From Candidatus Methanoperedens sp. (GTDB lineage: Archaea; Halobacteriota; Methanosarcinia; Methanosarcinales; Methanoperedenaceae), in the NCBI GenBank assembly GCA_027460535.1, contig JAPZAR010000030.1, forward strand, positions 8,582 to 40,581: DNA of 32,000 nt. Reading direction: 5' to 3'. The position numbers and the translations under genes are program-made. Positions within the stretch are counted from its first letter, which is position 1; each line of letters starts with the position of its first letter. The notes under the pieces were generated by a model. The model saw only the letters and a list, made by a program, of their open reading frames with translations. It searched no databases and was not told where the DNA came from. Below, in pieces: positions 5,830 to 21,853 of this stretch.

Positions 5830-5938
5830 ATGAAAACTTGACAGATAATCCGTAACCCAATTCAGATTTTATTCACCGAGAAAATCTATATAGTGCGAAA
5901 CAGGATTAAGTACAATTCAATTACCAAGTGAATTCAGT

Positions 5939-7141
5939 ATGAACTTTGAAGAAGTCATCGCTCTTAGGAAAGCCTTTAAGTCGGTGAAAGAAAGGCAGGC
6001 ACAGAATGTGCCCAGAGACTTTAAGGGGAGGAAAAAGAGGCTCAAAGCTGACAGGGAGTTCTGCGTCGGGAATGAAGAGCTTCTTGCGAGGACTATCGAC
6101 AAGCTCAGGAAAAACGGCATAACAGTTCATTATGTAAAGGAAAAAAATGAGGCTATAAACGTAATCCTCGATGAGATAGGAAAGGAAAAACTCGTTGTAA
6201 AGTCCAAATCCAATGTCACCAAAGAAATAGAATTGACCAAAGCTCTTGAGAAAAAAGGATTGACCGTGGTTGAGACCGATATCGGAGATCGGATCTTGCA
6301 GCTGCTACATGCGAAACCTTCCCATCCTACGGGCCCTGTAACTCACCTTTCGGCTAAAGAAATAGCACATGGACTTTCAAAACACTATGGTACGTCTATA
6401 AAGGAAACTCCGGAAGACATTGTGAGAATAGTCAGGGAGGATGTGATCCTGAACATCGGGAAGGCAAAGATCGGCATCACCGGGGCCAATGCCATAACAG
6501 CCGAGGAAGGGTCCATCGTGCTGACCCATAATGAGGGGAATATCTACGAGGTCATGAGAAAAGAAAAGCATATAGTTGTGACCTCGATAGATAAGATATA
6601 TCCCGATATCGAATCGGCGATGAACATGCTGAAAATTTTATGCTACAATGCCACGGGTTCGACCATCCCTTCTTTCGTTGAGGTGATAAGCGGGGTCAGC
6701 AAGACCGCGGATGTGGAGAAGAAATTCATAAAAGGCGTTCATTATCCTTCTGAGGTCGTCGTGGTGCTGCTGGATAATAAAAGGAGCGAGCTTGCGGCGA
6801 AAGGGTTCAAGGAACTTCTCCAGTGCGTGGGATGCGGGAATTGCCTGCTCTGCTGCCCGATGTATAATACTGTTGGCAATGAATTCGCTCTGGATAATTA
6901 CCTCGGAGGGAAAGGGATCGCATATTATTCCCTCTGCAATAACGAAAAGAACGAGAAGCTGGAACTCTGTCTCACATGCGGTAAGTGCAAAGATAATTGC
7001 CCTGTAGAACTTGATATTCCAGCTCTGATAAAAAAGATCAGAAGTGAGGGAATTTCTTCAGAGATATATTATTTTTTGAAATCGCATGCGATGTGGGTAT
7101 ATTACCAGACCTGTCTTAGATTAGGGATGGAAAGCAAGTAG
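5939..7141 (+). CDS. LUD-domain (LutB/DUF162-like) protein with C-terminal 2x[4Fe-4S] ferredoxin motifs
   Basis: 400-aa ORF with two Cys clusters, CVGCGNCLLCCP and CLTCGKCKDNCP. The preceding region (ITGANAITAEEGSIVLTHNEGN) resembles the LUD/lactate-utilisation fold. Confidence 0.75.
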   Translation: MNFEEVIALRKAFKSVKERQAQNVPRDFKGRKKRLKADREFCVGNEELLARTIDKLRKNGITVHYVKEKNEAINVILDEIGKEKLVVKSKSNVTKEIELTKALEKKGLTVVETDIGDRILQLLHAKPSHPTGPVTHLSAKEIAHGLSKHYGTSIKETPEDIVRIVREDVILNIGKAKIGITGANAITAEEGSIVLTHNEGNIYEVMRKEKHIVVTSIDKIYPDIESAMNMLKILCYNATGSTIPSFVEVISGVSKTADVEKKFIKGVHYPSEVVVVLLDNKRSELAAKGFKELLQCVGCGNCLLCCPMYNTVGNEFALDNYLGGKGIAYYSLCNNEKNEKLELCLTCGKCKDNCPVELDIPALIKKIRSEGISSEIYYFLKSHAMWVYYQTCLRLGMESK

Positions 7142-7143
7142 CA

Positions 7144-7165
7144 TGCACCGATCGAGATTTGAACC
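7144..7165 (-). repeat. Orphan fragment of the tRNA-Gly 3' end (T-loop plus 3' acceptor strand); att-like direct repeat
   Basis: Matches the tRNA-Gly 3' end at 21638-21659 at 21 of 22 positions. The upstream sequence cannot form the T-stem or the rest of a cloverleaf, so this is a fragment rather than a gene. Confidence 0.65.
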
Positions 7166-7250
7166 GCCGCCCCCGACACTCGACCCCCCGCGCAGCCGTT
7201 GCGGACTCTGCGCACTTTGCGGTGAAGCCTCCTGATTCTTGCACGGAGCC
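7166..7250 (+). repeat. GC-rich dispersed repeat, copy A (degenerate)
   Basis: Core gcagccgttgcggactctgcgcactttgcggtgaagcctcctgattcttgca (7192-7243) aligns with the cores at 14305-14365, 14644-14703 and 15705-15746. Confidence 0.8.
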
Positions 7251-7447
7251 ACACCTCCCACCAAAAATCAAGCTCCGCAGATCACCCCGCTCTCCAGCAT
7301 GGCGCCGCTCTGAATCCTGCGCTCCTGTTCGCATATTCATGGTGTTTTTGAAGCCCTCAGCATGTAACAAGGCATATCATCTCGTAAATATACTAAATAA
7401 CCTGAATAAGCAGAGAAATAAAAGAGCGGACGAAGGTTGCGGTTATC

Positions 7448-7639
7448 ATGAAAGACAGGACTCATACCGAGCATATCGAGCGATGGGCCAAATTTATAAA
7501 AACACATCCTCGCTCAATCTGGATCAGGGAGGTTGGACCTCTGATAGACGCGCAGATAATCATGGCAAATACTTTCTATGAGCGCCTCGCTAAAGTTGAA
7601 GGTGGAATTGAGAAAATAAGAAAACTAAGGAGAATCTAA
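7448..7639 (+). CDS. Hypothetical 63-aa protein co-transcribed with cas6
   Basis: ATG ORF whose TAA stop (7637-7639) directly abuts the cas6 TTG start (7640). Its 3' end contains the cas6 Shine-Dalgarno AAGGAG (7627-7632). Helical, basic sequence; no family recognised. Confidence 0.45.
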   Translation: MKDRTHTEHIERWAKFIKTHPRSIWIREVGPLIDAQIIMANTFYERLAKVEGGIEKIRKLRRI

Positions 7640-8407
7640 TTGAGAAGTAAAATAACAGTCAGAAACATCTCAAACCTTCCTGTTAATTTCGATTATCAGT
7701 ATGGTCTGGCATCAATGCTCTATTTCAAACTTGCCGGCGCGGATGTCAAGCTGGCTAACGAAACTCATGCTCATCAGGGATTCAAGTTCTATACATTCTC
7801 CAATCTTGTGTTGATGAATAGAAAAACCTGTAAATCAGGTCTTTGTTTTGAGAGGGCATATTTTATCCTGTCCTCACCTGATGACAGATTCATCAAGAGT
7901 TTTACCGAAGGTCTTCTCCAACACTCAGAATTCTATTTAGATGGACCAGACGGCAGAGCAAATTTCGTAATTGAGCGCATCGAAATACTGAAAGAACCAT
8001 CTTTAGGCGACGAGTGCTGGTTCAAGACCGTATCTCCAATCTATGTCAAGACCATGCGTAAAGAGAATGAAAGTTTGAAAGAGGTCGATCTCTATCCTAC
8101 TGAGCCGAAGTTCTACGAGAACCTCCACAAGAACCTGACAGAACGCTTCACTGAATTTTATGGCAAAGCACCCCTTGATCATTTCGATGTAATTGAAACT
8201 GAGGGCATCAAGCCAAAGCGCATCAAAATATCAGAAGGCTATAGGCGATGCAATCTCATGAGTCTGCGAATCCAGGCAAGTCCTGAGCTTTTGAAGTTCG
8301 CTTACGATGCAGGGCTTGGGGAGAAGAATGCGATGGGGTTCGGATGTGTGGATGTTGTGGATCAGGGTCAACATATGAAAAATTTAACCGCAGATAAACG
8401 CAGATGA
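7640..8407 (+). CDS. cas6: Cas6 CRISPR repeat endoribonuclease
   Basis: 255-aa RAMP-like ORF. N-terminus MRSKITVRNISNLPVNFDYQYGLASMLYFKL and the C-terminal glycine-rich loop GLGEKNAMGFGCV are Cas6 hallmarks. TTG start lies 7 nt after AAGGAG. Position at the head of a I-B locus supports the call. Confidence 0.85.
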   Translation: MRSKITVRNISNLPVNFDYQYGLASMLYFKLAGADVKLANETHAHQGFKFYTFSNLVLMNRKTCKSGLCFERAYFILSSPDDRFIKSFTEGLLQHSEFYLDGPDGRANFVIERIEILKEPSLGDECWFKTVSPIYVKTMRKENESLKEVDLYPTEPKFYENLHKNLTERFTEFYGKAPLDHFDVIETEGIKPKRIKISEGYRRCNLMSLRIQASPELLKFAYDAGLGEKNAMGFGCVDVVDQGQHMKNLTADKRR

Positions 8408-8417
8408 ACGCAGATTT
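8388..8417 (-). repeat. Inverted fragment of the GC-rich repeat family overlapping the cas6 stop
   Basis: ccgcagataaacgcagatgaacgcagattt, a 10-nt cagatNaacg motif repeated about 3 times. Its reverse complement aaatctgcgttcatctgcgtttatctgcgg aligns with aaatctgcgttaatctgtgaaatctgcgg at 14754-14782. Confidence 0.65.
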
Positions 8418-8503
8418 ATTAATTGGGCTCTACATTCCGATTACCTGCAAGAAAGCCAAACTAAGAGATGTGCGGGAAAATAGTTTCACCCCGCTCCACA
8501 AAG

Positions 8504-8511
8504 TTTTATAA
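8504..8511 (+). promoter_or_regulatory. TATA box for the zinc-ribbon ORF / interference operon (leaderless start)
   Basis: TTTTATAA is centred about 29 nt upstream of the in-frame ATG at 8536. This is the usual archaeal TATA-to-TSS spacing and implies a leaderless or near-leaderless mRNA. Confidence 0.4.
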
Positions 8512-8535
8512 CCTCGCAGTTAATTTAAAGTGTTG

Positions 8536-8976
8536 ATGATGGTGGAGAAAAGAGGTGGAAAAGCAAAGAGCACAAAAATGTTGACAGTAGCATGCTCTAT
8601 CTGCGGCATGGACATGGACTGCCCGGAATCGATGCTGGGGGCGGAGCGGCATTTCTGCGCGCAATGTACTGATCTCATGGCTGAAGGCTATGAGCCTGAG
8701 GAACTGAAGATGAGCCCTGAGGATATAGCGCAGCATTTGCCCGGATGCGATGAGGTATCAATGCTGTTGATGGATCTTACCTTCGATGGCTACTGGAATA
8801 AAGTGCTGGAATACGGTATAGAGCATTTTGATAATGAAAGGCTTGCGAAACAGAGCTATCTCCGGGGGGCAACTTCGATGCTGGGGCTTTTGATAAGTGC
8901 GGGGATGCCGCCGGAGTTTCTGGATGAACTGGCGGAGGGGATAAGGGGGGAGAGGAGGATGGGGGAGGGGAAGTGA
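8536..8976 (+). CDS. Zinc-ribbon protein of unknown function, first cistron upstream of cas8b
   Basis: ORF open from 8530 (GTG), with ATGs at 8536 and 8539. CxxC-x18-CxxC motif (CSICGMDMDCPESMLGAERHFCAQC) followed by a helical acidic domain. The TGA stop (8974-8976) overlaps the cas8b GTG (8973) / ATG (8976). GC-rich, unlike the downstream cas genes. Confidence 0.55.
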   Translation: MMVEKRGGKAKSTKMLTVACSICGMDMDCPESMLGAERHFCAQCTDLMAEGYEPEELKMSPEDIAQHLPGCDEVSMLLMDLTFDGYWNKVLEYGIEHFDNERLAKQSYLRGATSMLGLLISAGMPPEFLDELAEGIRGERRMGEGK

Positions 8977-8978
8977 TG
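8926..8978 (-). repeat. Inverted, imperfect copy of the left end of the GC-rich repeat
   Basis: gaactggcggaggggataaggggggagaggaggatgggggaggggaagtgatg aligns colinearly with the reverse complement of 14268-14318 (gaactggcggcgcgggggtgagggaggatggggggcgggggagtggatgtg). The first 10 nt are identical. The gag(g)aggatggggg and agtg(g)atg blocks are conserved, with indels between them. Confidence 0.55.
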
Positions 8979-10367
8979 AATAACGATATCGAAATGAGAA
9001 ATGAATTTGTTGGGGATCCAATCGTTGATTCCGGTTTGCTCGCAATTAAATTATTGGGAAATAAAGAAATAAATGACTGTTCAAAAGAAGAATTAAAAAA
9101 GATTACAGATGAACTTATTGAGCTTTATCTAACACCTGCTTGGTCAAAAGATATTTTATCCATATTTCCAAATAGCACTTATGTTCAATATGCCAAGAAT
9201 TATGATAGAGAAGGAAAGTCCAAAGAGTTTCTATATGAATTAATAGAAGGTTTAGATAAATCTGAAAATGATGGGGATTATTGTATTTTTTGTGGGAAAC
9301 ATGCATACAAGAGGAAAGATAATAAACCTTTCGTCAAAACACAAATACCTTTAGTCGGTTCATCTGATTTTACTAATTTTTCCCCATCATTTAAAAATGG
9401 CATTGATATTTGTGCAAAATGCGCTTTGGCAATTCAATTTGCACCTATTCTATTTTATAAAACTGGTGGAAAACCAAGTTGCATAAGCTGTAACAATACG
9501 GACGTTATGAAAACATTTGGAGAAGAATGTATAGGATATATTACTCAAAAAAAATTACTGGGTGGTTATAAATCCAAAGACGTTTCTGGCATATTTGATG
9601 AAGGTTTTAAATCAACACAAAATGCCTTGTTTCATTTAGCATATAAAACCTCTACAAAATATAAAAAGTTGGGACTTTTAAAACAAAACGAAGAAATTGT
9701 AATATATCGCGTTGATAATTACAATCAAAATCCGGCCGGAGTTACAATACATAAAATACCGAATAATATATTCAGATTTGTTATCAATGTGATGACAAGT
9801 CCTCAATATAAAAAAAATTGGTATGATTTACTTTCAAAACATTATGCGAAATCTGATGCAAAAAGTGATTTTCCAGTCTGGAAAGTCAGTTATAATAGGA
9901 TTCATGATTCTTTATTAAAAAATGAAAGCATATTATGGGCTTTCAGAGATGATAACGAAAAGAAACCAACATTACCATGGATTATAGTTGAGTCCTATAT
10001 GGAGTTAGTGAGAAATATGAATAAACAGAGAATTGAGGGTATCAAAAATCTGGCTGATAAAATCGCCATCTGCATCGAAGAGAATAATAATAAAAAGAGA
10101 GTTAATGATATTATTTCAGCCAGAGATTTTCCAACTTTTAGAAATCAATTGAGATTAGTTTTCAGGGATTGGCAAAAATTAGGTAAGGAGCAACCTATGA
10201 TAACTTATGAAGATTATATCTCAGCAATCATCCCGGAAGATTATTCCAATTGGAAAGAAGTTCAGGATTTGATAATTATAAGGTTATACGAAAAATTGCA
10301 TAATATGCTATCGAGTGGAGTAATTGATGATGTCGAACAAGAAAAATCAATAGGTGATGAAGAATGA
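8973..10367 (+). CDS. cas8b: Type I-B large subunit Cas8b (Cst1-like)
   Basis: 464-aa ORF in the canonical position between cas6 and cas7. Cys pairs CIFCGKH...CAKCALAIQFAP recall the Cst1/Cas8 zinc motif. A 4-nt ATGA overlap couples it to cas7. The call rests mainly on position and size, because large subunits are poorly conserved. Confidence 0.7.
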   Translation: MMNNDIEMRNEFVGDPIVDSGLLAIKLLGNKEINDCSKEELKKITDELIELYLTPAWSKDILSIFPNSTYVQYAKNYDREGKSKEFLYELIEGLDKSENDGDYCIFCGKHAYKRKDNKPFVKTQIPLVGSSDFTNFSPSFKNGIDICAKCALAIQFAPILFYKTGGKPSCISCNNTDVMKTFGEECIGYITQKKLLGGYKSKDVSGIFDEGFKSTQNALFHLAYKTSTKYKKLGLLKQNEEIVIYRVDNYNQNPAGVTIHKIPNNIFRFVINVMTSPQYKKNWYDLLSKHYAKSDAKSDFPVWKVSYNRIHDSLLKNESILWAFRDDNEKKPTLPWIIVESYMELVRNMNKQRIEGIKNLADKIAICIEENNNKKRVNDIISARDFPTFRNQLRLVFRDWQKLGKEQPMITYEDYISAIIPEDYSNWKEVQDLIIIRLYEKLHNMLSSGVIDDVEQEKSIGDEE

Positions 10368-11407
10368 AAACTATAATAGGAACTTACTTAATTGATGCGC
10401 CTTTTTCGGCGCTGAATAATCGAGGAATAGATCAGGGAGCAGCGAACGAGAATGAAGTAGCAACCAAAGTAATTCAATCTCCAGAAGGAATGAGGCCATA
10501 CGTTTCAGCACAAGCGTTAAGATACTGGTGGAGAATGGTTTTAGAAAATAAATTTGGATGGAAATGCTCACCTGTGGAAAAAATTGGAAAAAATCAAGCT
10601 GTTACTAAAGGTGATCCGCTGGAATACGATGATGATGATATTTTTGGGTATATGAGTGCCAGAAAAATTGATACGGGAGAGAAGGATAAAAGTGATAAGC
10701 CAAAGATGGAAAATGTAACCGTGACAAGGGTATCTCCATTAAAATGCTCGCCTTTAATTGGATTTCCAATACGACCTACTTCAGATTTTGGTGTATTAGT
10801 GAGAAAACTTGAAACTGATCCAATACTTTTTACTCATCAATTTTATAGCAATATCTTTAAAGGTATTTTTGCGCTGGATATTGATTCCGTAGGGAAATTC
10901 ACAACAATTGATAAACCTGGTAGCAAAAACTTGTCAAAAGACCTTGCAGAAAAATATGAAAAAAATGGATTAAAAAAAGATGAAAAAACATATTCACTTC
11001 CGTTAGAAAAAAAGAAGACGCGAATTTCTGATACCATTAAAGCCTTGAAGTTTTTGAATGGCGGGGCAATGCAGACATTGCATCATACTGATGTAACTCC
11101 CAAGTTAATTATGCTGGCAGTATTGAATAATGGAAATAACATATTCATGGATGTAATGCCTCACAATAAATACGATAATGGATTGGTCAATATCGATGCA
11201 TTATCTGAGATGTTGGAGGATTATAAGGAATCACTGTTGAGCAAAGTCTATATCGGTAAATTATCGGGTTTTGGATCAGATAAAGACAAAGAATTAGAGA
11301 GTTTCAAAGCACCATCGGGAGTTAATGTTGTAATTACGACTCCAGTTAAAGCAATAGATCAATTCATAGAGGAGATATTAACTAATAATAAAATTATTGG
11401 CGAGTAA
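10364..11407 (+). CDS. cas7: Cas7 backbone subunit (Cst2/DevR-like)
   Basis: 347-aa ORF. N-terminal IIGTYLIDAPFSALNNRG...NE...K followed by YVSAQALRYWWR matches the Cas7/DevR signature as I remember it. Sits between cas8b and cas5. Confidence 0.85.
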   Translation: MKTIIGTYLIDAPFSALNNRGIDQGAANENEVATKVIQSPEGMRPYVSAQALRYWWRMVLENKFGWKCSPVEKIGKNQAVTKGDPLEYDDDDIFGYMSARKIDTGEKDKSDKPKMENVTVTRVSPLKCSPLIGFPIRPTSDFGVLVRKLETDPILFTHQFYSNIFKGIFALDIDSVGKFTTIDKPGSKNLSKDLAEKYEKNGLKKDEKTYSLPLEKKKTRISDTIKALKFLNGGAMQTLHHTDVTPKLIMLAVLNNGNNIFMDVMPHNKYDNGLVNIDALSEMLEDYKESLLSKVYIGKLSGFGSDKDKELESFKAPSGVNVVITTPVKAIDQFIEEILTNNKIIGE

Positions 11408-11408
11408 A

Positions 11409-12062
11409 ATGGAAGTTCTTCGTGTTGAAATACGGGCAATTACAGCCTCATTTAGATACCCCATGTTTGTGGTATCTTATCAGCCTACATATAAAATTCC
11501 TCCAATATCTACGATATACGGTTTGCTCTCCGCTGCAAAGGGTGAAAAAGTCAGTATTTATGATTTATCCATTGGTTATGATTTTACATCTAGAGGAAGT
11601 GGCGTTGATCTGGAGCGCATTCTGGAGTTCGGTGGAGGAGACAAAAATAAACCCGTTTCCTATCTTGGTAGCAATATAATACACAGGGAATTTTTATATG
11701 ATTGTATATTGACATTATATATATCTGATCTAGATTTTAAACAATATTTAGAGAATCCACGTTTCACTCTTTTACTTGGAAGGCAATCAGATTTAGCTAA
11801 GATAACAAAGATAAAAGAAGTGAAATTGATTCCAAAAGAAAATGTTGAAATATATAATACAATTATACCTTTCGATGGAAGAGTGCCAGGGCAAATCGTT
11901 GCTTTACCCTCTGATTATACTGACAAAGCTGAAAGAAAACCAATTGAAGTAAGAACTTATTGTATCGTAGAATCAAAACAACAGATTGAAAGGGGATACT
12001 ATGATACTGAGCTAAATAAGGGAGTTTTTATGCATGAGTTCAACAATAAAAGCCAAAAGTAA
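11409..12062 (+). CDS. cas5: Cas5 (Cas5t/Cas5h-like)
   Basis: MEVLRVEIRAITASFRYPMFVVSYQPTYKIPPISTIYGLLSAAKG is the canonical Cas5 N-terminal motif. The track start at 11397 (TTG) is an alternative start. Confidence 0.85.
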   Translation: MEVLRVEIRAITASFRYPMFVVSYQPTYKIPPISTIYGLLSAAKGEKVSIYDLSIGYDFTSRGSGVDLERILEFGGGDKNKPVSYLGSNIIHREFLYDCILTLYISDLDFKQYLENPRFTLLLGRQSDLAKITKIKEVKLIPKENVEIYNTIIPFDGRVPGQIVALPSDYTDKAERKPIEVRTYCIVESKQQIERGYYDTELNKGVFMHEFNNKSQK

Positions 12063-14214
12063 TGGCGAATCACTTGAAGAACATATAAATAATTGCCTTA
12101 ATATTTTTGCTCAACTAAAGGATATTTATCCAGATTTACAAAAATTTACAAATTATCCTTCTTTTTATAGTGATGCTTTTGATGCTTTGTTTTTTCATGA
12201 TTTTGGTAAAGCTGCAGAAGGTTTTCAAAAATCATTATCTCCAAAAGGAGAAAAATGGAAGTATAGGCATGAAATTCTTTCAACACCTTTTATTAACTGC
12301 CTGAACAAAGAAAATCTCGATTTTGTCAAGATCTTAGTGCTAACTCACCATAAAGATATTAATAAATTAGTCGAATATATTGAAGATAATGATTTTTTGG
12401 GGATTCGTTATGAAGAACGATTAGAGGAAATCAAACCTAATATAAATGCACTGAATGAAATAATAAAGAAATATCCAGAAATCTCTAAAAAGATATTAGG
12501 CTCAATAGAATGCAAGGTCGATATTATAGAGAAAATATCAAAAGATAAGTCGATATGGGAGGAAATAATACAAAAGAAAAGAATGAACTTTTCATCAAAA
12601 ATAGGAATCTTTGGAAAAGGGATGATAAATTCTTGTGATTATTTAGCTTCAAGTGGGATAAAAAAGATACTTAAACCACTACCAAGCTTGAGTGAAGTAT
12701 ATAATTTTAAGTCCTTTACGAGTGTTCAGGCAAAATGTTTATCAACAAAAGGTAATGCGATAATTATTTCACCAACTGGTTCTGGAAAAACGGAAGCATC
12801 TCTGTTCTGGGCTACAAATAATCTCGATAAATCACAAGGAAATAGAATATTTTATGTTTTACCCTACACTGCGAGTATAAACGCAATGTATAGGCGATTA
12901 TTGATGAAATTAAGCCCATATTATTCAGATGATGGTTGTGTATCGCTATTACATGGAAAAGCGACTTATTTTTTATATAAGATGTTCGAGGATGGTGATT
13001 TTAGAGAAATACATAATTTATCTAAAAAAATTTATAGTCCATACAAAGTAATGACGCCTTTTCAATGTTTAAAACACTTCTTTTCATTGAAAGGATATGA
13101 GATGGGATTATTAGAAATGTACCGCGGGAGATATATTTTTGATGAGATACACTCCTATGATGCCAAAACAGCGGGATTGATATTATCAATGTGCGAGTAT
13201 TTGATAGAAGAGAATGATGCTAAGATATTGATAATGTCTGCAACGATGCCATCATTTCTGAAAAATATGTTTTTAGATAATCTTCATATTGAAAATGAAA
13301 TGGTTATGGATAAAAAAGAGTTGAGCAAATACCTTCGCCACAAATGCAAGATAATCGATGGAGATATCCTTGAAAATATTGATTTAATAATAAAAAGATT
13401 GCAGAATAAAGAAAAAGTATTGGTTGTGTGTAATACAGTAAATAGAGCCCAGGATGTTTATAAATTATTGAGAGATGAAGTTAACGACTCTGCTTTGTTG
13501 CATGGCAGATTTATCTTGAAAGATAGAGAAGCAATTGAAAAAAATCTTGAAAATCTGAATTTATTAGTGGGTACACAAGTCATTGAAGTTTCATTGGATA
13601 TCGATTATGATGTATGTTTCTCTGAACCAGCTCCAATTGATGCTTTAATTCAGCGATTTGGAAGAATTAACAGACGAAAAAACAGCGATGGATTACCACT
13701 CAAAGGCATTTGCGATGTATTTGTTTTTTCAAAAGGTTCTGAAAATGATCGATATATCTATGATACAGAGATTGTAAATAAAACTTTAAAAGTTCTCAAT
13801 GAAATTGATTTATTGTTTGAAGATAAATTATATGAAGCAGTCGATGAAATATACATTAATGGTTTTGGCGATAAACTAAAAGAATTTGAAGATACCAAAA
13901 CTTCATTTAGAAAAATGATAGATCGTATAGTACCTTTCAATAATTCAAACACAAAAGAATCAGACTTTTATGATTTATTTAATTCCATAGAAGCGGTTCC
14001 TGAAAAATATCGGCATGAATATCTTGATTGTATCCGAAATAAAAAGTTATTCGATGCTATGCAATATTGTCTGCAATTAACGAACGGTCAATTTCAAAAA
14101 CTACTCAAAGAAGGACGGGTTGATTTCGAAAAAAAGATTTTTATAGAGGCAAAGTATGATCCAGAATTGGGATTATTGATAAATGAACATGAAGAGAATC
14201 AAAATATAATATAA
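12034..14214 (+). CDS. cas3: Cas3 HD nuclease-helicase fusion
   Basis: 726-aa ORF. N-terminal HD motifs (FFHDFGK, YRHEILS, LTHHK). SF2 helicase motifs I SPTGSGKTE, II FDEIHSYD, III MSATMP and VI QRFGRINRR. Overlaps the cas5 end by 29 nt. Confidence 0.92.
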   Translation: MSSTIKAKSNGESLEEHINNCLNIFAQLKDIYPDLQKFTNYPSFYSDAFDALFFHDFGKAAEGFQKSLSPKGEKWKYRHEILSTPFINCLNKENLDFVKILVLTHHKDINKLVEYIEDNDFLGIRYEERLEEIKPNINALNEIIKKYPEISKKILGSIECKVDIIEKISKDKSIWEEIIQKKRMNFSSKIGIFGKGMINSCDYLASSGIKKILKPLPSLSEVYNFKSFTSVQAKCLSTKGNAIIISPTGSGKTEASLFWATNNLDKSQGNRIFYVLPYTASINAMYRRLLMKLSPYYSDDGCVSLLHGKATYFLYKMFEDGDFREIHNLSKKIYSPYKVMTPFQCLKHFFSLKGYEMGLLEMYRGRYIFDEIHSYDAKTAGLILSMCEYLIEENDAKILIMSATMPSFLKNMFLDNLHIENEMVMDKKELSKYLRHKCKIIDGDILENIDLIIKRLQNKEKVLVVCNTVNRAQDVYKLLRDEVNDSALLHGRFILKDREAIEKNLENLNLLVGTQVIEVSLDIDYDVCFSEPAPIDALIQRFGRINRRKNSDGLPLKGICDVFVFSKGSENDRYIYDTEIVNKTLKVLNEIDLLFEDKLYEAVDEIYINGFGDKLKEFEDTKTSFRKMIDRIVPFNNSNTKESDFYDLFNSIEAVPEKYRHEYLDCIRNKKLFDAMQYCLQLTNGQFQKLLKEGRVDFEKKIFIEAKYDPELGLLINEHEENQNII

Positions 14215-14267
14215 AATTGCATCAAGAAATCTCATCTCTTATTGCGTTTCATATGGTGTCGCCCTGC

Positions 14268-14897
14268 CACATCCACTCCCCCGCCCCCCATCCTCCCTCA
14301 CCCCCGCGCCGCCAGTTCTTTGCGGACTCTGCGCCCTTTGCGGTGATGCCTCCTGATTCTTGCATGGCACCGCATGGAAAAACATCCTAGCAAATGCGAT
14401 ATATCCCATGCAATAAATCCGCGTTCATAAACCGGAACTTCGGTTTACGCAGTGTTGGGGTATGCGAAGCATATCCCTCGTTTGATAAAACTTTCATAAA
14501 GTTTTGCGTCCATCTGCGGTTTCGTTTTTCGCAGAAGCGCCGGAAATTTATCGCATTCTGTTTATAAAATTTCACCTCAAAGACTGTAAGGAGCCCGCCC
14601 TCCTGCACGTTCTTCCCCGACCCGCCGATACGCGCTCACTTCCGCGCCGCCTGCTCTTTGCGGACTCTGCGCGCTTTGCGGTGGTGCTCCCTGATTCGTG
14701 CACAGCGCCGCAGAAAAAAACAGTCTGAAGAGTGCGATATATGCCCTTGCAATAAATCTGCGTTAATCTGTGAAATCTGCGGATTCGTTTTTCGGAGAGT
14801 GATTAACCATTGTTCTCTGGAATATTTTTTGCGTTTTTGTGGTTGCTCCGGTCTCCATGAAGCGCCAGAAATTTATCTGGTGCTATATATATAATTC
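14268..14897 (+). repeat. Two tandem ~330-bp units of the GC-rich repeat family
   Basis: Unit cores begin with ctttgcggactctgcgc at 14318 and 14656. Each core is followed by a hairpin (14340-14373 and 14678-14711) and a tgcgatatat..tgcaataaatc(c/t)gcgtt block. Each unit ends in gaagcgcc(g/a)gaaatttatc (14534-14573 and 14859-14897). Confidence 0.85.
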
Positions 14898-14970
14898 TTT
14901 CTAAAAATTTATTGAAGCACAGTAAAATTTTGTGATAAGGCGTCTGAGGTTGTTTTGATCCATAACAATG

Positions 14971-14980
14971 CTTATATAAG
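14971..14980 (+). promoter_or_regulatory. TATA box for the vapBC pair (leaderless)
   Basis: cttatataag is centred about 25 nt upstream of the ATG at 15001. Confidence 0.4.
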
Positions 14981-15000
14981 ACAATATCAAACTATAATAT

Positions 15001-15231
15001 ATGGCTGAATTGAAAGTTACCATTCCTGAAGAACTCTGGAGAAAAATGGCAAGCTTTGAAATAGACTGGCATGCGATCACCAGAGATCTTCTCAAAAAGA
15101 AAGTCAATGAACTGAGTGATTTGAAATCCATTGTTTCCAAAAGCAAGATGACCGACGAGGATGCGTTAGAGCTTGGTAGAAAGGTTAATAAATCACTTGC
15201 AAAAAAATTCAAAACTTCAGCGATGGGATAA
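15001..15231 (+). CDS. VapB-type antitoxin (small, helical; partner of the PIN toxin)
   Basis: 76-aa ORF directly abutting the PIN gene (TAA then ATG). The pattern KVTIPEEL...W....R......V.......I..KSKMTDEDALELGRKV is what I recall for archaeal PIN-associated antitoxins. Confidence 0.6.
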   Translation: MAELKVTIPEELWRKMASFEIDWHAITRDLLKKKVNELSDLKSIVSKSKMTDEDALELGRKVNKSLAKKFKTSAMG

Positions 15232-15654
15232 ATGCTCCTCATTGTTGATGCCAACGTTGTTTTTTCGGTTCTCATAAAAGGTGGGAAAACATTAGACATT
15301 TTTTTTTTGAATAAAGCTAAAAAAAGATTTGATTTTGTAGCTCCTGAATTTCTTATGGTGGAAGTTGAAAAACACACCAGTGAGATTATTAAGAAAACTG
15401 GACTTTCAACAGAAGAGATTGGAAAGGTGTTTGATTTTCTTGAAAAAGAAATTGAATTTGTTTCATTTGAAGAGTTTGAAGAATTCTATAAAGAAGCAGA
15501 GCAAATATCTCCTGATCCCAATGATGTTCAGTATTTTGCGCTTGCTATGAAATTAAATGGGGCTATTTGGTCTAATGACAAGGCATTAAAAAAGCAGTTT
15601 GTAGTTGATGTGCTATCTACAGGGGAAATAATAAAATTAATGGAATTTGAATAG
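15232..15654 (+). CDS. vapC: PIN-domain ribonuclease toxin (VapC-like)
   Basis: 140-aa ORF. N-terminal acidic motif LIVDANVVFSVLIKGG, a mid glutamate (APEFLMVEVEKH), and the C-terminal motif DPNDVQYFALAMKLNGAIWSNDKAL. Confidence 0.8.
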   Translation: MLLIVDANVVFSVLIKGGKTLDIFFLNKAKKRFDFVAPEFLMVEVEKHTSEIIKKTGLSTEEIGKVFDFLEKEIEFVSFEEFEEFYKEAEQISPDPNDVQYFALAMKLNGAIWSNDKALKKQFVVDVLSTGEIIKLMEFE

Positions 15655-15676
15655 TTCATATTGTATTATTTTGTTA

Positions 15677-15760
15677 TCCCCCGCTCCCCATCCTCCCTCA
15701 CCCCCGCGCCGCCAGCTCTTTGCGGACTCTGCGCCCTCTGCGGTGGGTACGATTCGTACC
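15677..15760 (+). repeat. GC-rich repeat, copy E, ending in a 15-bp palindrome
   Basis: cccccgctccccatcctccctcacccccgcgccgccagctctttgcggactctgcgccctctgcggtg aligns with 14279-14345. The hairpin of the other copies is replaced by the palindrome GGTACGAtTCGTACC (15746-15760). Confidence 0.8.
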
Positions 15761-15828
15761 AATCTGTGCAAGGACAAAGAGTCATCTAAAAAGATGAACC
15801 CAACCGTATATTTCATTCATCCCAAACC

Positions 15829-15866
15829 TTTATAAATTCAAAAATGAATAAATTCATTCAAAAATG
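15829..15866 (+). promoter_or_regulatory. Promoter/operator upstream of the wHTH-NTase gene
   Basis: TATA box TTTATAAA at 15829-15836. Inverted repeat AATGAAT-aa-ATTCATT at 15843-15858. Direct repeats ttcaaaaatg at 15837-15846 and 15857-15866, 20 nt apart. All lie between the TATA box and the ATG at 15878. Confidence 0.4.
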
Positions 15867-15877
15867 GTTATATAACT

Positions 15878-16477
15878 ATGAAATTCCACAATGTTCTTGA
15901 CGAGATATTAGGCAATAGAACAAAGGTGAAGCTGCTAAGGGCATTTTTCACCTATCTTGAAAAAGAATTCACAGAAAGCGAACTCCAGAGGATAGCGGGG
16001 ATACCGCAGGCGAGCGTTCACAGGAACGTAAAGTTTCTCCTCGCGAATGGACTTCTTGACAGGGAACGCATCGGAAAGGCAAATCTGTATTCGCTGAACA
16101 AAGAGCATATTCTTTATGCTCTTCTACAGAACATTTTTGAGAATGAAAAAAACCTTCTCTCTGAACTTAAAAAGTCGCTTAAAGGTTCGATTGAAAGCTT
16201 TTCTGGGATAGAGTTAGCAGTACTCTTCGGAAGCGTTTTAAAAGGCACTGAGAGAGCGGACAGCGATATAGATATTTTCATCGTCTGTAAAGCAGATAAA
16301 TCACAGGTGGAAGAAGAGATGAAAAACCTGATCCAGGTTATCGGAAATAAATTCGGAAACCCGGTATCGCCGATGATAAAGAATGATACAGAGATGAAAG
16401 ACATAAGAAGCAGTTCAATATACAAAGAATTAAAAAGAGGTGAAGTACTCTTTAAGCGCGAGGGATTTGAATGGTGA
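15878..16477 (+). CDS. Winged-helix DNA-binding domain fused to a minimal (Pol-beta superfamily) nucleotidyltransferase
   Basis: 199-aa ORF. The N-terminal part (TKVKLLRAFF...FTESELQRIAGIPQASVHRNVKFLLANGLLDRERIGKANLYSLN) looks like a wHTH. The C-terminal part carries the NTase motif LFGSVLKGTERADSDIDIFIV (G[SG]...D.D). Confidence 0.8.
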   Translation: MKFHNVLDEILGNRTKVKLLRAFFTYLEKEFTESELQRIAGIPQASVHRNVKFLLANGLLDRERIGKANLYSLNKEHILYALLQNIFENEKNLLSELKKSLKGSIESFSGIELAVLFGSVLKGTERADSDIDIFIVCKADKSQVEEEMKNLIQVIGNKFGNPVSPMIKNDTEMKDIRSSSIYKELKRGEVLFKREGFEW

Positions 16478-16562
16478 AAGGTCTATCAACAAAACCTGCA
16501 CAGGAAATGTTCAGGGATGCAGAACGTCTAGTGGAATGGGTTGAAAATAGGAACATGGTGGC

Positions 16563-17129
16563 ATGAATCCGCAAGATGTAACTTTGGAAGAAAAAGAAAG
16601 ACCCCAACCTGAAGACATCATGGCCGGTGCCATGCGCATCACAGGCATTAAAGTAACATACTACTTCATCTGCCATACCAAACTCTGGCTGTTTTCGCAC
16701 AATATCACGCTTGAGAAAGAGAATGACAATGTGAATATTGGAAAACTCCTGCATGAAGACCGCTATAAGCGCGACTCAAAAGAGATAACAATCGACCAGA
16801 CGATAAGCATCGATTTCATCCGGAAGGGTGATACCATTGTTCTCCATGAAATAAAAAAAACAAAAAGCATGGAAGTGGCACATCGCTGGCAGATGCTATA
16901 TTACCTGTATTACCTGAAATCAAAAGGTATCAGCGCCACAGGCGAAATAAATTATCCCCTCGTTAGCAGGAAAGAAGAGATAGTGCTTCTTGAAAAAGAT
17001 GAATTGGAAATGGAAAATGTGATAAATGATATCAGGAAGATCGCAATGGGAAGGATGCCGCAACCTAAAAGGATAAAGATCTGCCCGAAATGCGCTTATT
17101 TCGAATTCTGTTTTGGAGATGAAGTATGA
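16563..17129 (+). CDS. cas4: Cas4 RecB-like nuclease with Fe-S cysteines
   Basis: [18 protein letters not shown] supplies the N-terminal Cys. Nuclease motifs IDF...LHEIKK. C-terminal [10 protein letters not shown] supplies three Cys. The true start may be the internal ATG at 16620 or 16632. An ATGA overlap couples it to cas1. Confidence 0.85.
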
Positions 17130-18115
17130 AGGAAGATTATTATATCACACAGGACGGCGGCCTTACAAGGCATGAAAATACGGTATATTTCGAGAACGAA
17201 AACACAAAACGCGCCCTTCCGGTAAATAAGATATACTCAATATACGCATACGGCAGGCTCAGCTTTTCATCCGGGGTCGTGGATTATCTTGCAAAGAGCG
17301 GGATACCGATACACTTCTTTAATTATTATGGTTTTTACGAAGGCTCATTCTATCCGCGCGAAACGCTGATAAGCGGCGATCTGACCGTGAAGCAGGCATC
17401 GAATTATCTCGACAGCGCAAAGAGACTGATACTTGCAAAATCCTTTGTTGAAGGCGCTTGCGGCAATATCCTGAAAAATCTCAACTATTACGCGCGGGAG
17501 ATGAAAAGTCTTGAAACACATATCAGCGGCATCGAATCCGAGATCGCGAGACTGCCGGGGACAGCAACTATCCCTGAGGTCATGAATGTAGAAGGACGGA
17601 TAAGGAATATTTATTATACGGCGCTTGATGAGATATTCCCTGAGAATTACAGGATAATCAAAAGGTCAAGGATGCCGCCGGCGAACAGGATGAACACGTT
17701 AATCAGTTTCGGGAATTCCCTGATGTACACAACAACTCTTTCGGAAATATACAATACCCAGTTAAACCCCACTATTTCTTTCCTTCATGAGCCATTTGAA
17801 AGGAGATTCTCGCTTGCTCTTGATGTAAGCGAGATATTCAAACCCATAATTATCGACAGGATCATCCTGAAGCTTGTGAATAAGAACATGCTTGACGATG
17901 CTTGTTTCAGGGGGGAGATAGGAGATATGCTGCTCAGTGAAAAAGGGAAAAAGCTGTTCCTGGCAGAATATAATGAGAAGCTTTCCACAACTATCAAACA
18001 CAGAGGACTGGAACAAAATGTTTCTTTCAAACGGCTTATAAGACTTGAATTGTATAAACTCGTGAAGCATTGCCTTGGTGAAAAGGATTACAAACCTCTC
18101 ATTATGTGGTGGTAA
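17126..18115 (+). CDS. cas1: Cas1 integrase
   Basis: 329-aa ORF with the typical Cas1 layout. N-terminal beta domain ([19 protein letters not shown]), then the catalytic helical domain ([11 protein letters not shown]...[12 protein letters not shown]...[22 protein letters not shown]). Confidence 0.95.
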
Positions 18116-18381
18116 TCTTGTATGTAATAATTGTTTATGATGTGGGGGTGGAAAGGGTGAACAAGGTGAGGATTTACCTCAAGCAGTATCTTAATTGGGT
18201 GCAGAATAGTGTGCTGGAAGGGGAGCTTACAGAACCTGAATACATGAAGATAATGAATGGGCTCAGGGATGTAATAGATGAATCCCAGGATAATGTTATC
18301 TGTTATAAATCGAGAGATCGGAAGTATCTCGCTATTGATGAAATAGGAACTAAAAAGGCTGAGATCACAACAATAATCTGA
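18106..18381 (+). CDS. cas2: Cas2
   Basis: [36 protein letters not shown] is the canonical Cas2 N-terminus. GTG at 18106 overlaps the cas1 stop. TTG at 18118 (giving MYVIIVYDV) is an equally plausible start. Confidence 0.9.
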
Positions 18382-18576
18382 TGTCGATGATCTAAAGTCG
18401 TGGATCTTTATAAAGCAAATACAAAACCTGGGATGCACGACTGAAAATTCTATTTTTGCAAAGGTTTTTGTGGAATGAGTTCTATTTATATTTGAGAGAA
18501 AATCAATAGACGATACCTGAAAAATTGTCTGTTTTTTCAACCAAATTCAACCGAAAATCCAGCTGGAAAAAGCTTG
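18382..18576 (+). promoter_or_regulatory. CRISPR leader (AT-rich) with candidate TATA boxes
   Basis: 195-bp AT-rich spacer between cas2 and the first repeat. TATA-like TTTATAAA around 18406-18413 and TTTATATT around 18484-18491. Orientation follows from the repeat 3' handle ATTGAAAT. Confidence 0.6.
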
Positions 18577-21408
18577 GTTAAAATCAGCCCTTGGAGGGAT
18601 TGAAATCCTGGAGGAAATGCTCTTGCCTAAATCTGTTATAAAGTTAAAATCAGCCCTTGGAGGGATTGAAATACGTAGATGTACCCGGTGTTCGCGTCAA
18701 GGTTTGTCAGTTAAAATCAGCCCTTGGAGGGATTGAAATACTATATACGTGCATACATACATAGATATGTATGCTGGTTAAAATCAGCCCTTGGAGGGAT
18801 TGAAATTATTCTGCTCCTCAGGCGATGCCGCCTTCCTTGAGGTTAAAATCAGCCCTTGGAGGGATTGAAATGGCGGTGATCGTATGAAATGCATCCACGC
18901 GATATATCGTTAAAATCAGCCCTTGGAGGGATTGAAATATGATATGGTGCCTTGTGCGCGAGGGCAGCCTCCTTGGTTAAAATCAGCCCTTGGAGGGATT
19001 GAAATGACTCTCCGGCGCTGAGCCTTTGGCTGCTGTATCACGTTAAAATCAGCCCTTGGAGGGATTGAAATTACTGAGATCGTGAAGCTGCGAACGCCCC
19101 TGGGGAGCGTTAAAATCAGCCCTTGGAGGGATTGAAATGTGTGAGCCCGAACTTTTCCGAGGTCAGTTCCGCCAGTTAAAATCAGCCCTTGGAGGGATTG
19201 AAATCGTGGTACCACGTGCTCCCCTCAACCCCATAGCGTGCGTTAAAATCAGCCCTTGGAGGGATTGAAATACGGAACGAACACGCACAAAATCCGTCGT
19301 GGCGTTATGTTAAAATCAGCCCTTGGAGGGATTGAAATAAGGCAAAACGCTCGAACAGGATCACCTTCATGGACGGTTAAAATCAGCCCTTGGAGGGATT
19401 GAAATCTGCGTATGCAGTGCGTTTCCGATCTTGTTCACGCGTTGTTAAAATCAGCCCTTGGAGGGATTGAAATTCTCTATGATCCTTATGATCGGGGGTT
19501 CATACTACCAGTTAAAATCAGCCCTTGGAGGGATTGAAATTTAAGACTATGTCGTCTTTTGAGCAGATCGGTAAGAAGTTAAAATCAGCCCTTGGAGGGA
19601 TTGAAATATATCTGTTTTTTCAGATATAGAAATTTTGAAATATTGTTAAAATCAGCCCTTGGAGGGATTGAAATATCATAATTATTATGTTTTGAGAGTA
19701 GATCATAAGGAGTTAAAATCAGCCCTTGGAGGGATTGAAATGTCTCAGCACAGACGACAAGCAACCAGACCTACACGAGTTAAAATCAGCCCTTGGAGGG
19801 ATTGAAATAGCGATGTAAAGAACATCCAGGGAGCGCACTTCAAATGTTAAAATCAGCCCTTGGAGGGATTGAAATACGCCTAGGCTTTCCTTGCCTCTTC
19901 CCTGACTTCTTGTTAAAATCAGCCCTTGGAGGGATTGAAATTCACTTGTAGCCCTTGAGGAAGTTGAGCGTATCGAGGTTAAAATCAGCCCTTGGAGGGA
20001 TTGAAATCAATAAGAACCTCCTCTACCCTTGGTTGTTATTTCATGTTAAAATCAGCCCTTGGAGGGATTGAAATAGCAAACAACGATACCGAGCAGCCCG
20101 GGTAATTCTCGTTAAAATCAGCCCTTGGAGGGATTGAAATATTCGCCCTCGCTCTCGGTCATGGTTCCCTATAAAACGTTAAAATCAGCCCTTGGAGGGA
20201 TTGAAATGAAGTGGACGAGTGCGGATGGAATTGAAGTCACCATGGTTAAAATCAGCCCTTGGAGGGATTGAAATCATCAACTTGCACCTCACACTTAAGA
20301 TAATGCTCAATGTTAAAATCAGCCCTTGGAGGGATTGAAATAAGGAATGGAGATGAAGATTTCTGCAGGCATACAAGTTAAAATCAGCCCTTGGAGGGAT
20401 TGAAATACGGTTTGATGAGCTTCTTGATAAAATACAGAACCAAGTTAAAATCAGCCCTTGGAGGGATTGAAATATGCAAGGTGCTGCTACAACTGCGAAC
20501 CGTGTGAATCGTTAAAATCAGCCCTTGGAGGGATTGAAATTTATAACTACTTCGACGTTCCCGCTTGCTGTGCTGAGTTAAAATCAGCCCTTGGAGGGAT
20601 TGAAATCTTGATACTTCCTGATTGGTGAAGTTCGCCCATCCGTGTTAAAATCAGCCCTTGGAGGGATTGAAATGGGTCTTTAGCAAGCTACCTGAGTATG
20701 TGCAAAAGAATGTTAAAATCAGCCCTTGGAGGGATTGAAATATTAATCAAGCAAACCGTTCAAGGAGGAAGGCTTCGGTTAAAATCAGCCCTTGGAGGGA
20801 TTGAAATATTTCGACTGCTCCATTTGCAAATATCACGAGCGTGGTTAAAATCAGCCCTTGGAGGGATTGAAATGACAATAGTGACATACAACACAAACGG
20901 AATTGCAGGTGTTAAAATCAGCCCTTGGAGGGATTGAAATATAGCGAATCGAGGCACGACACCAAGTCCGTGCGGAAGTTAAAATCAGCCCTTGGAGGGA
21001 TTGAAATAGATTAGTTAAACTAACTAACGGCTCTGTATATGATGTTAAAATCAGCCCTTGGAGGGATTGAAATATGTAACCAAAAAAGAACCAGATGAAA
21101 TAATCCCGGCGTTAAAATCAGCCCTTGGAGGGATTGAAATCAATGATATCATAGGGATGTTGTTATATTAATCCCTTGTTAAAATCAGCCCTTGGAGGGA
21201 TTGAAATCGAATACCTGGAAACATGCCGTCATGCCCGGACGAGGGTTAAAATCAGCCCTTGGAGGGATTGAAATGTGATCAAGGCGCTCCCGGACCTCAA
21301 TGCCCTGGTCGGTTAAAATCAGCCCTTGGAGGGATTGAAATGCAGACGTAATCTTAGCTGGGGCAAGTATCCCACTTAGTTAAAATCAGCCCTTGGAGGG
21401 ATTGAAAT
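18577..21408 (+). CRISPR. CRISPR array: 43 repeats of GTTAAAATCAGCCCTTGGAGGGATTGAAAT (30 nt), 42 spacers of 35-38 nt
   Basis: I located every repeat start by hand, from 18577, 18643, 18710 ... to 21312, 21379, with a period of 65-68 nt. I noticed no repeat variants. The repeat has a CCCT-TGG-AGGG mini-hairpin and ends in ATTGAAAT. It closely resembles the Haloferax I-B repeat ...CCCTTGTGGGATTGAAGC. Confidence 0.98.
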
Positions 21409-21637
21409 GGAGTATCTATCATGTGGGCACCGAGGGCATTAATTTGCATATCTTGATGTTGATTTTGTCCGGTTAACATTTAATAAGAAATCATCAATAA
21501 ATAACCGCTGTCCATGAATATTTTAATGCTAGAAAGATGATAATAAATAGTGGATTCATTTTAGATTCTTTTGAAGCATTAGGAATCGTTCAAAAGTATC
21601 GATAATCTTTTTGCCCGGTTTTTTTTAAAACCGAAAT

Positions 21638-21709
21638 GCACCGATCGGGATTTGAACCCGAGTTATTAGCTTGGAAGGCTAAAGTCATAGCCGCTAGACC
21701 ATCGGTGCT
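21638..21709 (-). tRNA. tRNA-Gly (anticodon UCC)
   Basis: Reverse complement is GCACCGATGGTCTAGCGGCTATGACTTTAGCCTTCCAAGCTAATAACTCGGGTTCAAATCCCGATCGGTGCA. Acceptor stem GCACCGA/TCGGTGC, D-arm GTC..GAC, anticodon stem TTAGC/GCTAA with loop CT-TCC-AA, and T-arm TCGGG-TTCAAAT-CCCGA. 72 nt, with no encoded CCA. Confidence 0.92.
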
Positions 21710-21853
21710 ACGATGCCTTCCTAAGTGAGTAAAAGGATTTAATTGTTTCGTATTGGGAAATCAGCAATTTCCATACAGGATGTTTGCTAATTATAAATAA
21801 AATTTTGTGCAGTATGACATATGGACTGCACAGAGTTGATATGGTGAAATTCC

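Follow-up and report, generated by a model that had tools for sequence, protein, structure and literature searches.

A tRNA-Gly gene and a displaced copy of its 3′ end flank a type I-B CRISPR-Cas locus in Candidatus Methanoperedens

Introduction

How does a CRISPR-Cas locus come to stand between a tRNA gene and a stray copy of that tRNA's own 3′ end? The question is raised by a 32,000-nucleotide (nt) stretch of DNA from Candidatus Methanoperedens sp. (assembly GCA_027460535.1, contig JAPZAR010000030.1, positions 8,582 to 40,581 of the forward strand), which we analyzed at its full length and refer to as the window. An intact tRNA-Gly(UCC) gene lies at one end of a 14.5-kb interval, a fragment of the same tRNA lies at the other, behind a gene for a LUD-domain protein, and the interval holds solely a type I-B CRISPR-Cas locus with a toxin-antitoxin (TA) pair and a nucleotidyltransferase. 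A preliminary description, made from the sequence alone, had read this as integration into a tRNA 3′ end. The evidence presented here indicates that an integration event at tRNA-Gly probably did occur and that what is left is an island without an integrase. Given such an event, the chances that CRISPR-Cas was its original cargo are about even. Loci used for comparison are designated by L numbers.

Results

The only tRNA gene in the window, on which ARAGORN and Rfam agree, is tRNA-Gly(UCC) on the minus strand at 21637–21708 (Rfam score, 66 bits). Its 3′ end points towards the island and forms the attL-like boundary, named by analogy with attachment (att) sites. At the opposite boundary (7143–7165, minus strand) lies the displaced copy of that 3′ end, an attR-like direct repeat 14.47 kb from the tRNA. 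The sequence TGCACCGATCGAGATTTGAACC at 7144–7165 matches the plus-strand sequence TGCACCGATCGGGATTTGAACC at 21637–21658 with one mismatch, and inclusion of the preceding A extends the repeat to 23 nt, with 22 of 23 positions identical between 7143–7165 and 21636–21658 in the same orientation; the difference is a single G-to-A change. The preliminary description had the fragment correctly at 7144–7165 but placed the tRNA one base too high, at 21638–21709. It likewise recognized a 22-nt copy 3 nt after the stop codon of the LUD gene, whereas the repeat is 23 nt long and begins 2 nt past that stop (last base, 7141).

Written in tRNA sense, the copy is GG-TTCAAAT-CTCGA-TCGGTGC-A. It takes in 2 nt from the 5′ strand of the T-stem, the T-loop, the 3′ strand of the T-stem, in which the lone substitution falls, the 3′ acceptor strand and the discriminator. 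A cloverleaf is lacking, and no tRNA is called at 7143–7165 by either ARAGORN or Rfam, in keeping with the earlier view that it is a fragment and not a second tRNA. The rest of the tRNA region does not recur in the window, which leaves the 23-nt fragment as the sole copy. Two matches to the repeat were seen in none of 100 dinucleotide-preserving shuffles, and the expected number of matches to this fixed 22-mer with ≤1 mismatch across the whole window is 2.4e-7. Duplication of the tRNA 3′ end is far beyond chance, as the preliminary estimate had also held.

We then used the left flank to look for uninterrupted sites. The LUD gene (5939–7141, plus strand; Pfam LUD_dom and Fer4, a LUD-domain/4Fe-4S protein) is conserved and lies outside the island. 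A search with its product retrieved 16 loci at 70–82% identity, 14 of which are titled Candidatus Methanoperedens, the others being an uncultured archaeon (L002) and a Euryarchaeota archaeon (L003). Synteny upstream of LUD is kept among these 16 orthologues. In L001 (contig JAPMTX010000144), where LUD is 82% identical and is preceded by the same heavy-metal ATPase, methyltransferase and Na/H exchanger genes as in the window, the 3′ end of an intact tRNA-Gly(UCC) follows the LUD stop directly, with a gap of 0 nt. In L004, an intact tRNA-Gly lies 8 nt past the stop. By blastn, window positions 5938–7165 correspond to L001 10000–11225 and positions 21635–21751 to L001 11202–11318, so that both junctions overlap on the same 24 nt of the uninterrupted site. 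The fragment at 7143–7165 thus holds the place that the intact tRNA's 3′ end holds in L001 and L004.

An alignment to relatives had been proposed as a check for empty sites, and two other Methanoperedens species now provide them. The converse arrangement, a fragment beside LUD without the insert, which would have counted against integration, occurs in none of the 16 relatives. No cas genes were found downstream of LUD in any of the 16, within up to 10 kb where the contig allows, and the interval in the window has the patchy distribution among relatives of an island. Ten relatives share the tRNA-Gly gene together with about 45–55 nt on its upstream, promoter side. Eight relatives besides L001 and L004 have tRNA-Gly 0.6–3 kb downstream of LUD, and the trailer is conserved in most of these. 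From the two junctions, a predicted attB site consists of window 7120–7143 joined to the full tRNA, ...GCAAGTAGCATGCACCGATCGGGATTTGAACCCGAGTTATT, and a predicted attP junction of window 21600–21636, the core and 7166–7200.

Both junctions recur in other assemblies. Contigs of the same population came from the metagenome-assembled genome (MAG) GCA_027460495.1 and from several assemblies in Logan and ENA. Two of them, L017 and L019, extend across the left junction, agree with the window at every base for the first 450 and 441 nt past the LUD stop, and end at window 8415 and 7582, respectively; L024 begins at window 21379, in the last CRISPR repeat, and continues through the tRNA to the PspAA gene; and L027 equals window 7535–18407 without a mismatch. 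Because independent assemblies match both junctions, the arrangement is not an assembly artefact. Position 7376 is the exact end of three independent short-read assemblies, including the NCBI MAG, which resumes at 7535, and the stretch 7376–7535 is read through by L017 and L019. L023 has a 1-nt insertion near 7537, within the DUF8150 open reading frame (ORF). The break at 7376–7535 could be due to a local repeat or to strain heterogeneity.

Pfam annotation bore out the contents listed in the preliminary description: cas genes, a TA pair, a nucleotidyltransferase and an array, with no integrase. Every called gene of the island is on the plus strand. Behind the first GC-rich unit, described below, lies a small gene of 63 aa (7448–7639) that has a weak DUF8150 match in L017 and homologues in L046, L048 and L050; it is followed by cas6 (7640–8407; Pfam Cas6_I-A and Cas_Cas6_C). 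A conserved 148-aa ORF without a Pfam family (8530–8976), present at the same position in L027, L044, L048 and L050, precedes cas8b (8973–10367), cas7 (10364–11407), cas5 (11397–12062) and cas3 (12034–14214), all identified by Pfam. A G-rich/C-rich inverted repeat around the effector cassette (8945–8970 and 14280–14305) was considered and set aside; its G-rich arm turned out to be conserved coding sequence for the C-terminus of the 148-aa ORF.

The downstream half of the island begins with a ribbon-helix-helix (RHH) antitoxin (15001–15231) and a PIN_2 toxin (15232–15654), a pair also found in L044. Next come a helix-turn-helix (HTH) nucleotidyltransferase (15878–16477; Polbeta/NTP_transf_2), which has the same position in L046, L048 and L050, and the Pfam-identified genes cas4 (16563–17129), cas1 (17126–18115) and cas2 (about 18106–18381). 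A leader (18382–18576, plus strand) conserved with that of L044 adjoins the plus-strand array (18577–21408), which comprises 43 identical 30-nt repeats, GTTAAAATCAGCCCTTGGAGGGATTGAAAT, and 42 spacers of 35–38 nt. The last repeat, next to the tRNA, is identical to the others, whereas the L044 array ends in a degenerate repeat; no similarity was found between the array trailer and that of L044. The spacers gave no meaningful match to the window or to any of the fetched loci. Between the array and the tRNA 3′ end, an AT-rich stretch of 228 nt (21409–21636) contains no ORF and has no homologue at other loci; it may be leftover element DNA. With all cas genes, a repeat-spacer array and a leader present, and with close Cas1 homologues that carry the NCBI name type I-B Cas1b, the locus is a complete and apparently functional type I-B system.

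Four GC-rich repeat units, all on the plus strand, accompany these cassettes. Unit 1 (7166–7400) abuts the tRNA fragment, lies upstream of the DUF8150-cas6 cassette and ends in a TATA-like box. By repeat comparison, units 2 and 3 form a tandem at 14284–14620 and 14622–14900, behind cas3, and unit 4 (15684–15860), which is partial, lies upstream of the nucleotidyltransferase-cas4 cassette. The units are about 100–330 nt long with the core TTGCGGACTCTGCGCNCTYTGCGGTG, and each copy in the window is oriented with the genes and ends in a TATA-like box. The core TTGCGGACTCTGCGC occurs 4 times in the window, always within the island and on the plus strand, and was absent from the window flanks and from the 16 related LUD loci.

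When metagenomes were scanned with a 25-base form of the core, 7 contigs were retrieved. Six are Methanoperedens CRISPR-Cas-type contexts and the seventh, L038, is an unrelated match. In L043 the unit precedes cas4, cas1, cas2 and an array, with a Cas1 97.6% identical to that of the window; in L039 it lies beside cas4; L037 has five units in tandem; and L040, L041 and L042 carry further copies without a cas gene. The preliminary description had allowed that the tRNA fragment might turn out to be a regular part of this dispersed repeat. That possibility fell away: the fragment never precedes the 3 other window copies, the 9 metagenome copies on 6 contigs, or the L038 match, and the left flanks of the other copies are unrelated. 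GC-rich units were observed at every cassette junction of this CRISPR-Cas family (also in L037, L039–L043, L044, L046 and L048–L050). With their TATA-like boxes just ahead of plus-strand cassettes, they may be shared promoter or regulatory modules, or else portable homology for cassette shuffling.

We next asked what, if anything, in the island could have moved it. Pfam identified no recombinase among the 14 largest island ORFs (the antitoxin was annotated separately), and no integrase lies inside the island next to an att site; on this point Pfam and tblastn both agree with the preliminary description. No relatives of Cas8b were found in viral contigs, and a comparison of PLSDB plasmids with the cas part of the island (7144–18600) and the tRNA trailer returned one haloarchaeal tRNA match only and no attP junction.

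The island does encode a Cas1, and an intact target, an insert and a duplicated target would look much the same had a casposon-like Cas1 integrase or a transposase made the insertion, with the 23-nt repeat as its target-site duplication. Casposons reportedly target tRNA 3′ ends and leave duplications of 14–15 bp. The repeat here, at 23 nt, exceeds known casposon duplications, and it coincides exactly with the T-loop-to-3′-end block typical of tyrosine-recombinase cores. Comparison of the outermost 500 nt at either end of the island uncovered no terminal inverted repeats, and there is neither a family-B polymerase (PolB) nor a transposase. Nor is there a PolB-linked Cas1 without an array: the cas1 gene is part of a standard cas4-cas1-cas2 operon, and its product is 96–98% identical to ordinary type I-B Cas1. 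We regard an origin by transposition as hardly credible.

Homologous type I-B loci occupy different chromosomal sites in other genomes. The L044 locus (VEPM01000011) has a 104-repeat array with a CDC48 gene behind it and no tRNA; on the left, L048 is bordered by heterodisulfide-reductase-like genes and L049 by an isopropylmalate/isocitrate dehydrogenase gene. The effector cassette (window about 8865–14223) is 90–94% identical in nucleotide sequence to L044 287–5870, L048 11417–16778 and L049 10995–16292, whereas in the same pairs cas6 is 80–83% and the LUD orthologues are about 75% identical. This disparity implies that the effector cassette was recently exchanged between species, and the pattern of identities indicates that the exchange involved the effector module alone. 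Cassette order also differs. The DUF8150 gene, which in the window comes first in the island, on its left side, lies mid-locus and just upstream of the nucleotidyltransferase-cas4 cassette in L046 (7938–8189), L048 (20184–20435) and L050 (18931–19125), where it follows a 187-aa gene absent from the window. By these comparisons the locus is a shuffled mosaic.

L050 (JAPMTX010000159.1) comes from the same genome as the empty site in L001. Its segment 3476–10699 contains tRNA-Arg, tRNA-Thr, a 395-aa tyrosine integrase, an HTH protein, a Gins51_C-domain protein and cas6; the HTH and Gins51_C-domain genes are plasmid-like. Its Cas6 is 86% identical to that of the window, and its effector set differs. 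The CRISPR locus of L050 lies next to a tRNA-Thr/integrase element and may be inside it, although no repeat of the tRNA-Thr 3′ end (attR) was found within the 17 kb examined.

The interval between LUD and tRNA-Gly varies across the genus. In L016 (11295–13814) it holds a subtilase gene, AbiTii and a duplicated C-terminal fragment of LUD (12507–12743), and in L014 (5134–7348) a radical-SAM gene and an acylphosphatase gene. L009 (5232–6455) has a Fic gene after LUD and stops before any tRNA-Gly, and L004 (11357–11758) has a PIN gene just past the tRNA. No integrase was found downstream of LUD in the 16 relatives, which carry housekeeping genes or assorted cargo instead. In L002 there is a second tRNA-Gly(UCC) copy, 5′-truncated, mutated and 940 nt from the intact gene (3260–3385 versus 4244–4317), which includes about 45 nt of 3′ trailer; a 151-aa ORF of no assigned function lies between the two. 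Here the same tRNA was duplicated a second time, independently and in a different species, so that it has been hit more than once in the genus. On the evidence of these loci, the region downstream of LUD is a variable hotspot in Methanoperedens.

A different gene order was seen in L002, L005, L007, L010, L011 and L016, which share the series LUD, tRNA-Gly, a LarA-type lactate racemase gene and tRNA-Met. Pfam confirmed the racemase for the L002 member, and the other five were grouped by similarity. In these six, tRNA-Met is followed by tRNA-Asn in five and by tRNA-Cys in four, where the contig reaches. The order suggests that LUD and LarA are an ancestral pair of lactate-related genes, with the tRNA now dividing them.

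To the right of the window tRNA lie PspAA, PspA and HerA genes. No relative has these beside tRNA-Gly, and the neighbours of PspA and PspAA differ in every relative examined. Since the right flank is variable across the genus, its mismatch neither supports nor contradicts integration. The synteny to the right of the tRNA is nevertheless unique to this lineage, gene order around LUD and PspA is fluid in Methanoperedens, and the L002 duplication, with its trailer of about 45 nt, is longer than a simple att core; all three could speak for a non-specific rearrangement, in which a CRISPR-Cas/tRNA-Gly region was joined to the LUD region through illegitimate recombination, through segmental duplication of the 3′ end of the tRNA or through a larger chromosomal rearrangement. 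Such an event would have had to break exactly at the T-stem/T-loop boundary, end the duplicated block within one base of the tRNA 3′ terminus and leave the tRNA intact. A random breakpoint is unlikely to give all three, and we regard this explanation as very improbable.

The hotspot and the mosaic structure of the locus bear on another explanation, in which the fragment is the scar of an older, unrelated element and CRISPR-Cas came later, or took that element's place, through cassette exchange or homologous recombination. Unrelated cargo makes the LUD-tRNA-Gly interval a variable hotspot, most relatives have no tRNA fragment there, and the duplicated LUD 3′ end in L016 suggests import through recombination in the flank. 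The locus, moreover, is a mosaic, with an effector module 90–94% identical across species against about 80% for cas6; the direct-repeat GC-rich units at every junction are possible drivers of homologous exchange; and no element genes are left. On the other side, only CRISPR-Cas lies between the repeats, and a GC-rich unit starts at the first base after the fragment, so that a secondary replacement would have had to be exact. With 1 substitution in 23 nt, the scar is also not very old. We consider a later arrival conceivable but rather unlikely.

Discussion

The results favor integration at tRNA-Gly, and the geometry proposed in the preliminary description stands: the repeat, an intact tRNA facing the insert and empty sites in relatives are all present. 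In the ancestor, tRNA-Gly(UCC) would have followed the LUD gene directly. A DNA element with a copy of the T-loop-to-3′-end sequence, its attP core being the tRNA 3′ end, would have recombined at the tRNA by site-specific recombination of the tyrosine-recombinase type, and the incoming DNA would have supplied the 3′ part of the tRNA and so kept the gene intact. We infer that the recombinase was of the tyrosine type. The original 3′ end would have been left beside LUD and would have gained one substitution since. The G-to-A change may be a later mutation in a non-functional copy or a difference between attP and attB beside the crossover. The integrase would have been lost with the rest of the element, or else a plasmid or extrachromosomal element would have provided it in trans.

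Several observations weigh against this account. Searched by tblastn with the L050 tyrosine integrase, the window has no remnant of such a gene anywhere. The predicted attP junction has 0 matches in JGI metagenomes, the tRNA 22-mer has 0 matches in IMG/VR viral contigs, and all same-species contigs retrieved carry the insert junction, with no empty site among them. Only the effector cassette deviates in base composition from the host (GC 0.28–0.35, about 30%, versus 0.40–0.50 in the flanks), and the locus as a whole is a mosaic. The right flank (PspAA, PspA, HerA) matches no relative, and a further rearrangement may have taken place at the tRNA. Finally, homology to other CRISPR-Cas loci begins about 20 nt past the left repeat and continues to the end of the array, 228 nt before the right repeat; with edges this tight and no element genes surviving, a large element that decayed here would have had to be trimmed very cleanly. 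Either CRISPR-Cas was nearly the whole inserted unit, or the element was cleanly removed, or the locus replaced an earlier occupant of the hotspot.

The preliminary description had left two readings of an island without an integrase, a fossil or one mobilized in trans. Because the same-species assemblies all carry the insert and no circular junction was found, we favor the fossil, and the island appears to be fixed and immobile. A broader form of the second reading would make the CRISPR-Cas locus itself the mobile unit: a set of cassettes flanked by att sites and without an integrase, moved in trans, from chromosomes to elements and back, by the tyrosine integrases of Methanoperedens plasmids or extrachromosomal elements, with tRNA-Gly(UCC) as one landing site and the GC-rich, promoter-bearing units as portable homology by which effector, TA and adaptation cassettes are shuffled. 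If true, this would explain the near-identical effector cassettes at unrelated sites in different species, the clean boundaries of the island and the chimeric CRISPR-Cas loci on elements. We consider it unlikely, and put it forward as speculation.

The arrangement can be compared with several known systems. Mycobacteriophage Ms6 has a 26-bp attP core in tRNA-Ala (AGGGGTTCGAATCCCCTTAGCTCCAC), with the T-loop as the likely site of strand exchange (PMC1762012); its core and the repeat described here have the same layout of T-stem, T-loop, T-stem and 3′ acceptor strand. In Methanoperedens itself, a 409-kb extrachromosomal element integrates at tRNA-Asp by means of an adjacent tyrosine integrase, flanked by 14-bp direct repeats (PMC13444090), and plasmids encode phage-type integrases (PMC9674854). 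The island resembles tRNA-targeted elements of tyrosine recombinases in its intact tRNA, far repeat and empty site in relatives. It departs from them in that it has no integrase at its att sites, no replication, transfer or virion genes, a defence locus as its sole content and no detected excised form. Casposons also encode Cas1, insert at tRNA 3′ ends and are bordered by a duplicated target, but the island lacks PolB and terminal inverted repeats, its 23-nt repeat is longer than their duplications, and its Cas1 is in a normal operon with an array.

Islands without their own recombinase have precedents. The cis-mobilizable elements (CIMEs) and mobilizable islands have att-type repeats, lack a recombinase of their own and are mobilized in trans. 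CIMEs are like the island in their att-type flanks and missing recombinase, whereas here no cognate integrase or excised circle was identified; the one core mismatch may block recombination. CRISPR-Cas islands of Vibrio usually keep integrases or other mobility genes. For the CRISPR-Cas systems that genomic islands and other mobile elements carry in Vibrio (PMC6360697), the likeness is a complete CRISPR-Cas locus on an inserted island and not at a core site; the differences are the archaeal host and lack of a mobility gene here. As in defence hotspots, the LUD-tRNA-Gly interval or the site after LUD holds AbiTii and Fic genes in relatives, and a PIN gene lies just past the tRNA in L004. What sets the CRISPR-Cas locus apart from these other contents is an explicit att duplication of the tRNA, which most of them lack.

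The principle is not new, as tRNA-targeted islands and mobile CRISPR-Cas are both well known. What the window offers is a case, resolved to the base pair, of a complete adaptive-immunity locus entering the chromosome of an uncultured methane-oxidizing archaeon, with the entry point, the displaced target and the empty site all visible. The tRNA-Gly(UCC) gene beside LUD is a recurrent hotspot that is worth screening in complete genomes. In Methanoperedens, CRISPR-Cas modules pass between the host and its Borgs, large plasmids and jumbo extrachromosomal elements, and extrachromosomal elements carry chimeric CRISPR-Cas loci derived from several species of the genus (PMC13444090). Finding such a locus within a tRNA att scar ties that exchange to a concrete mechanism of integration.

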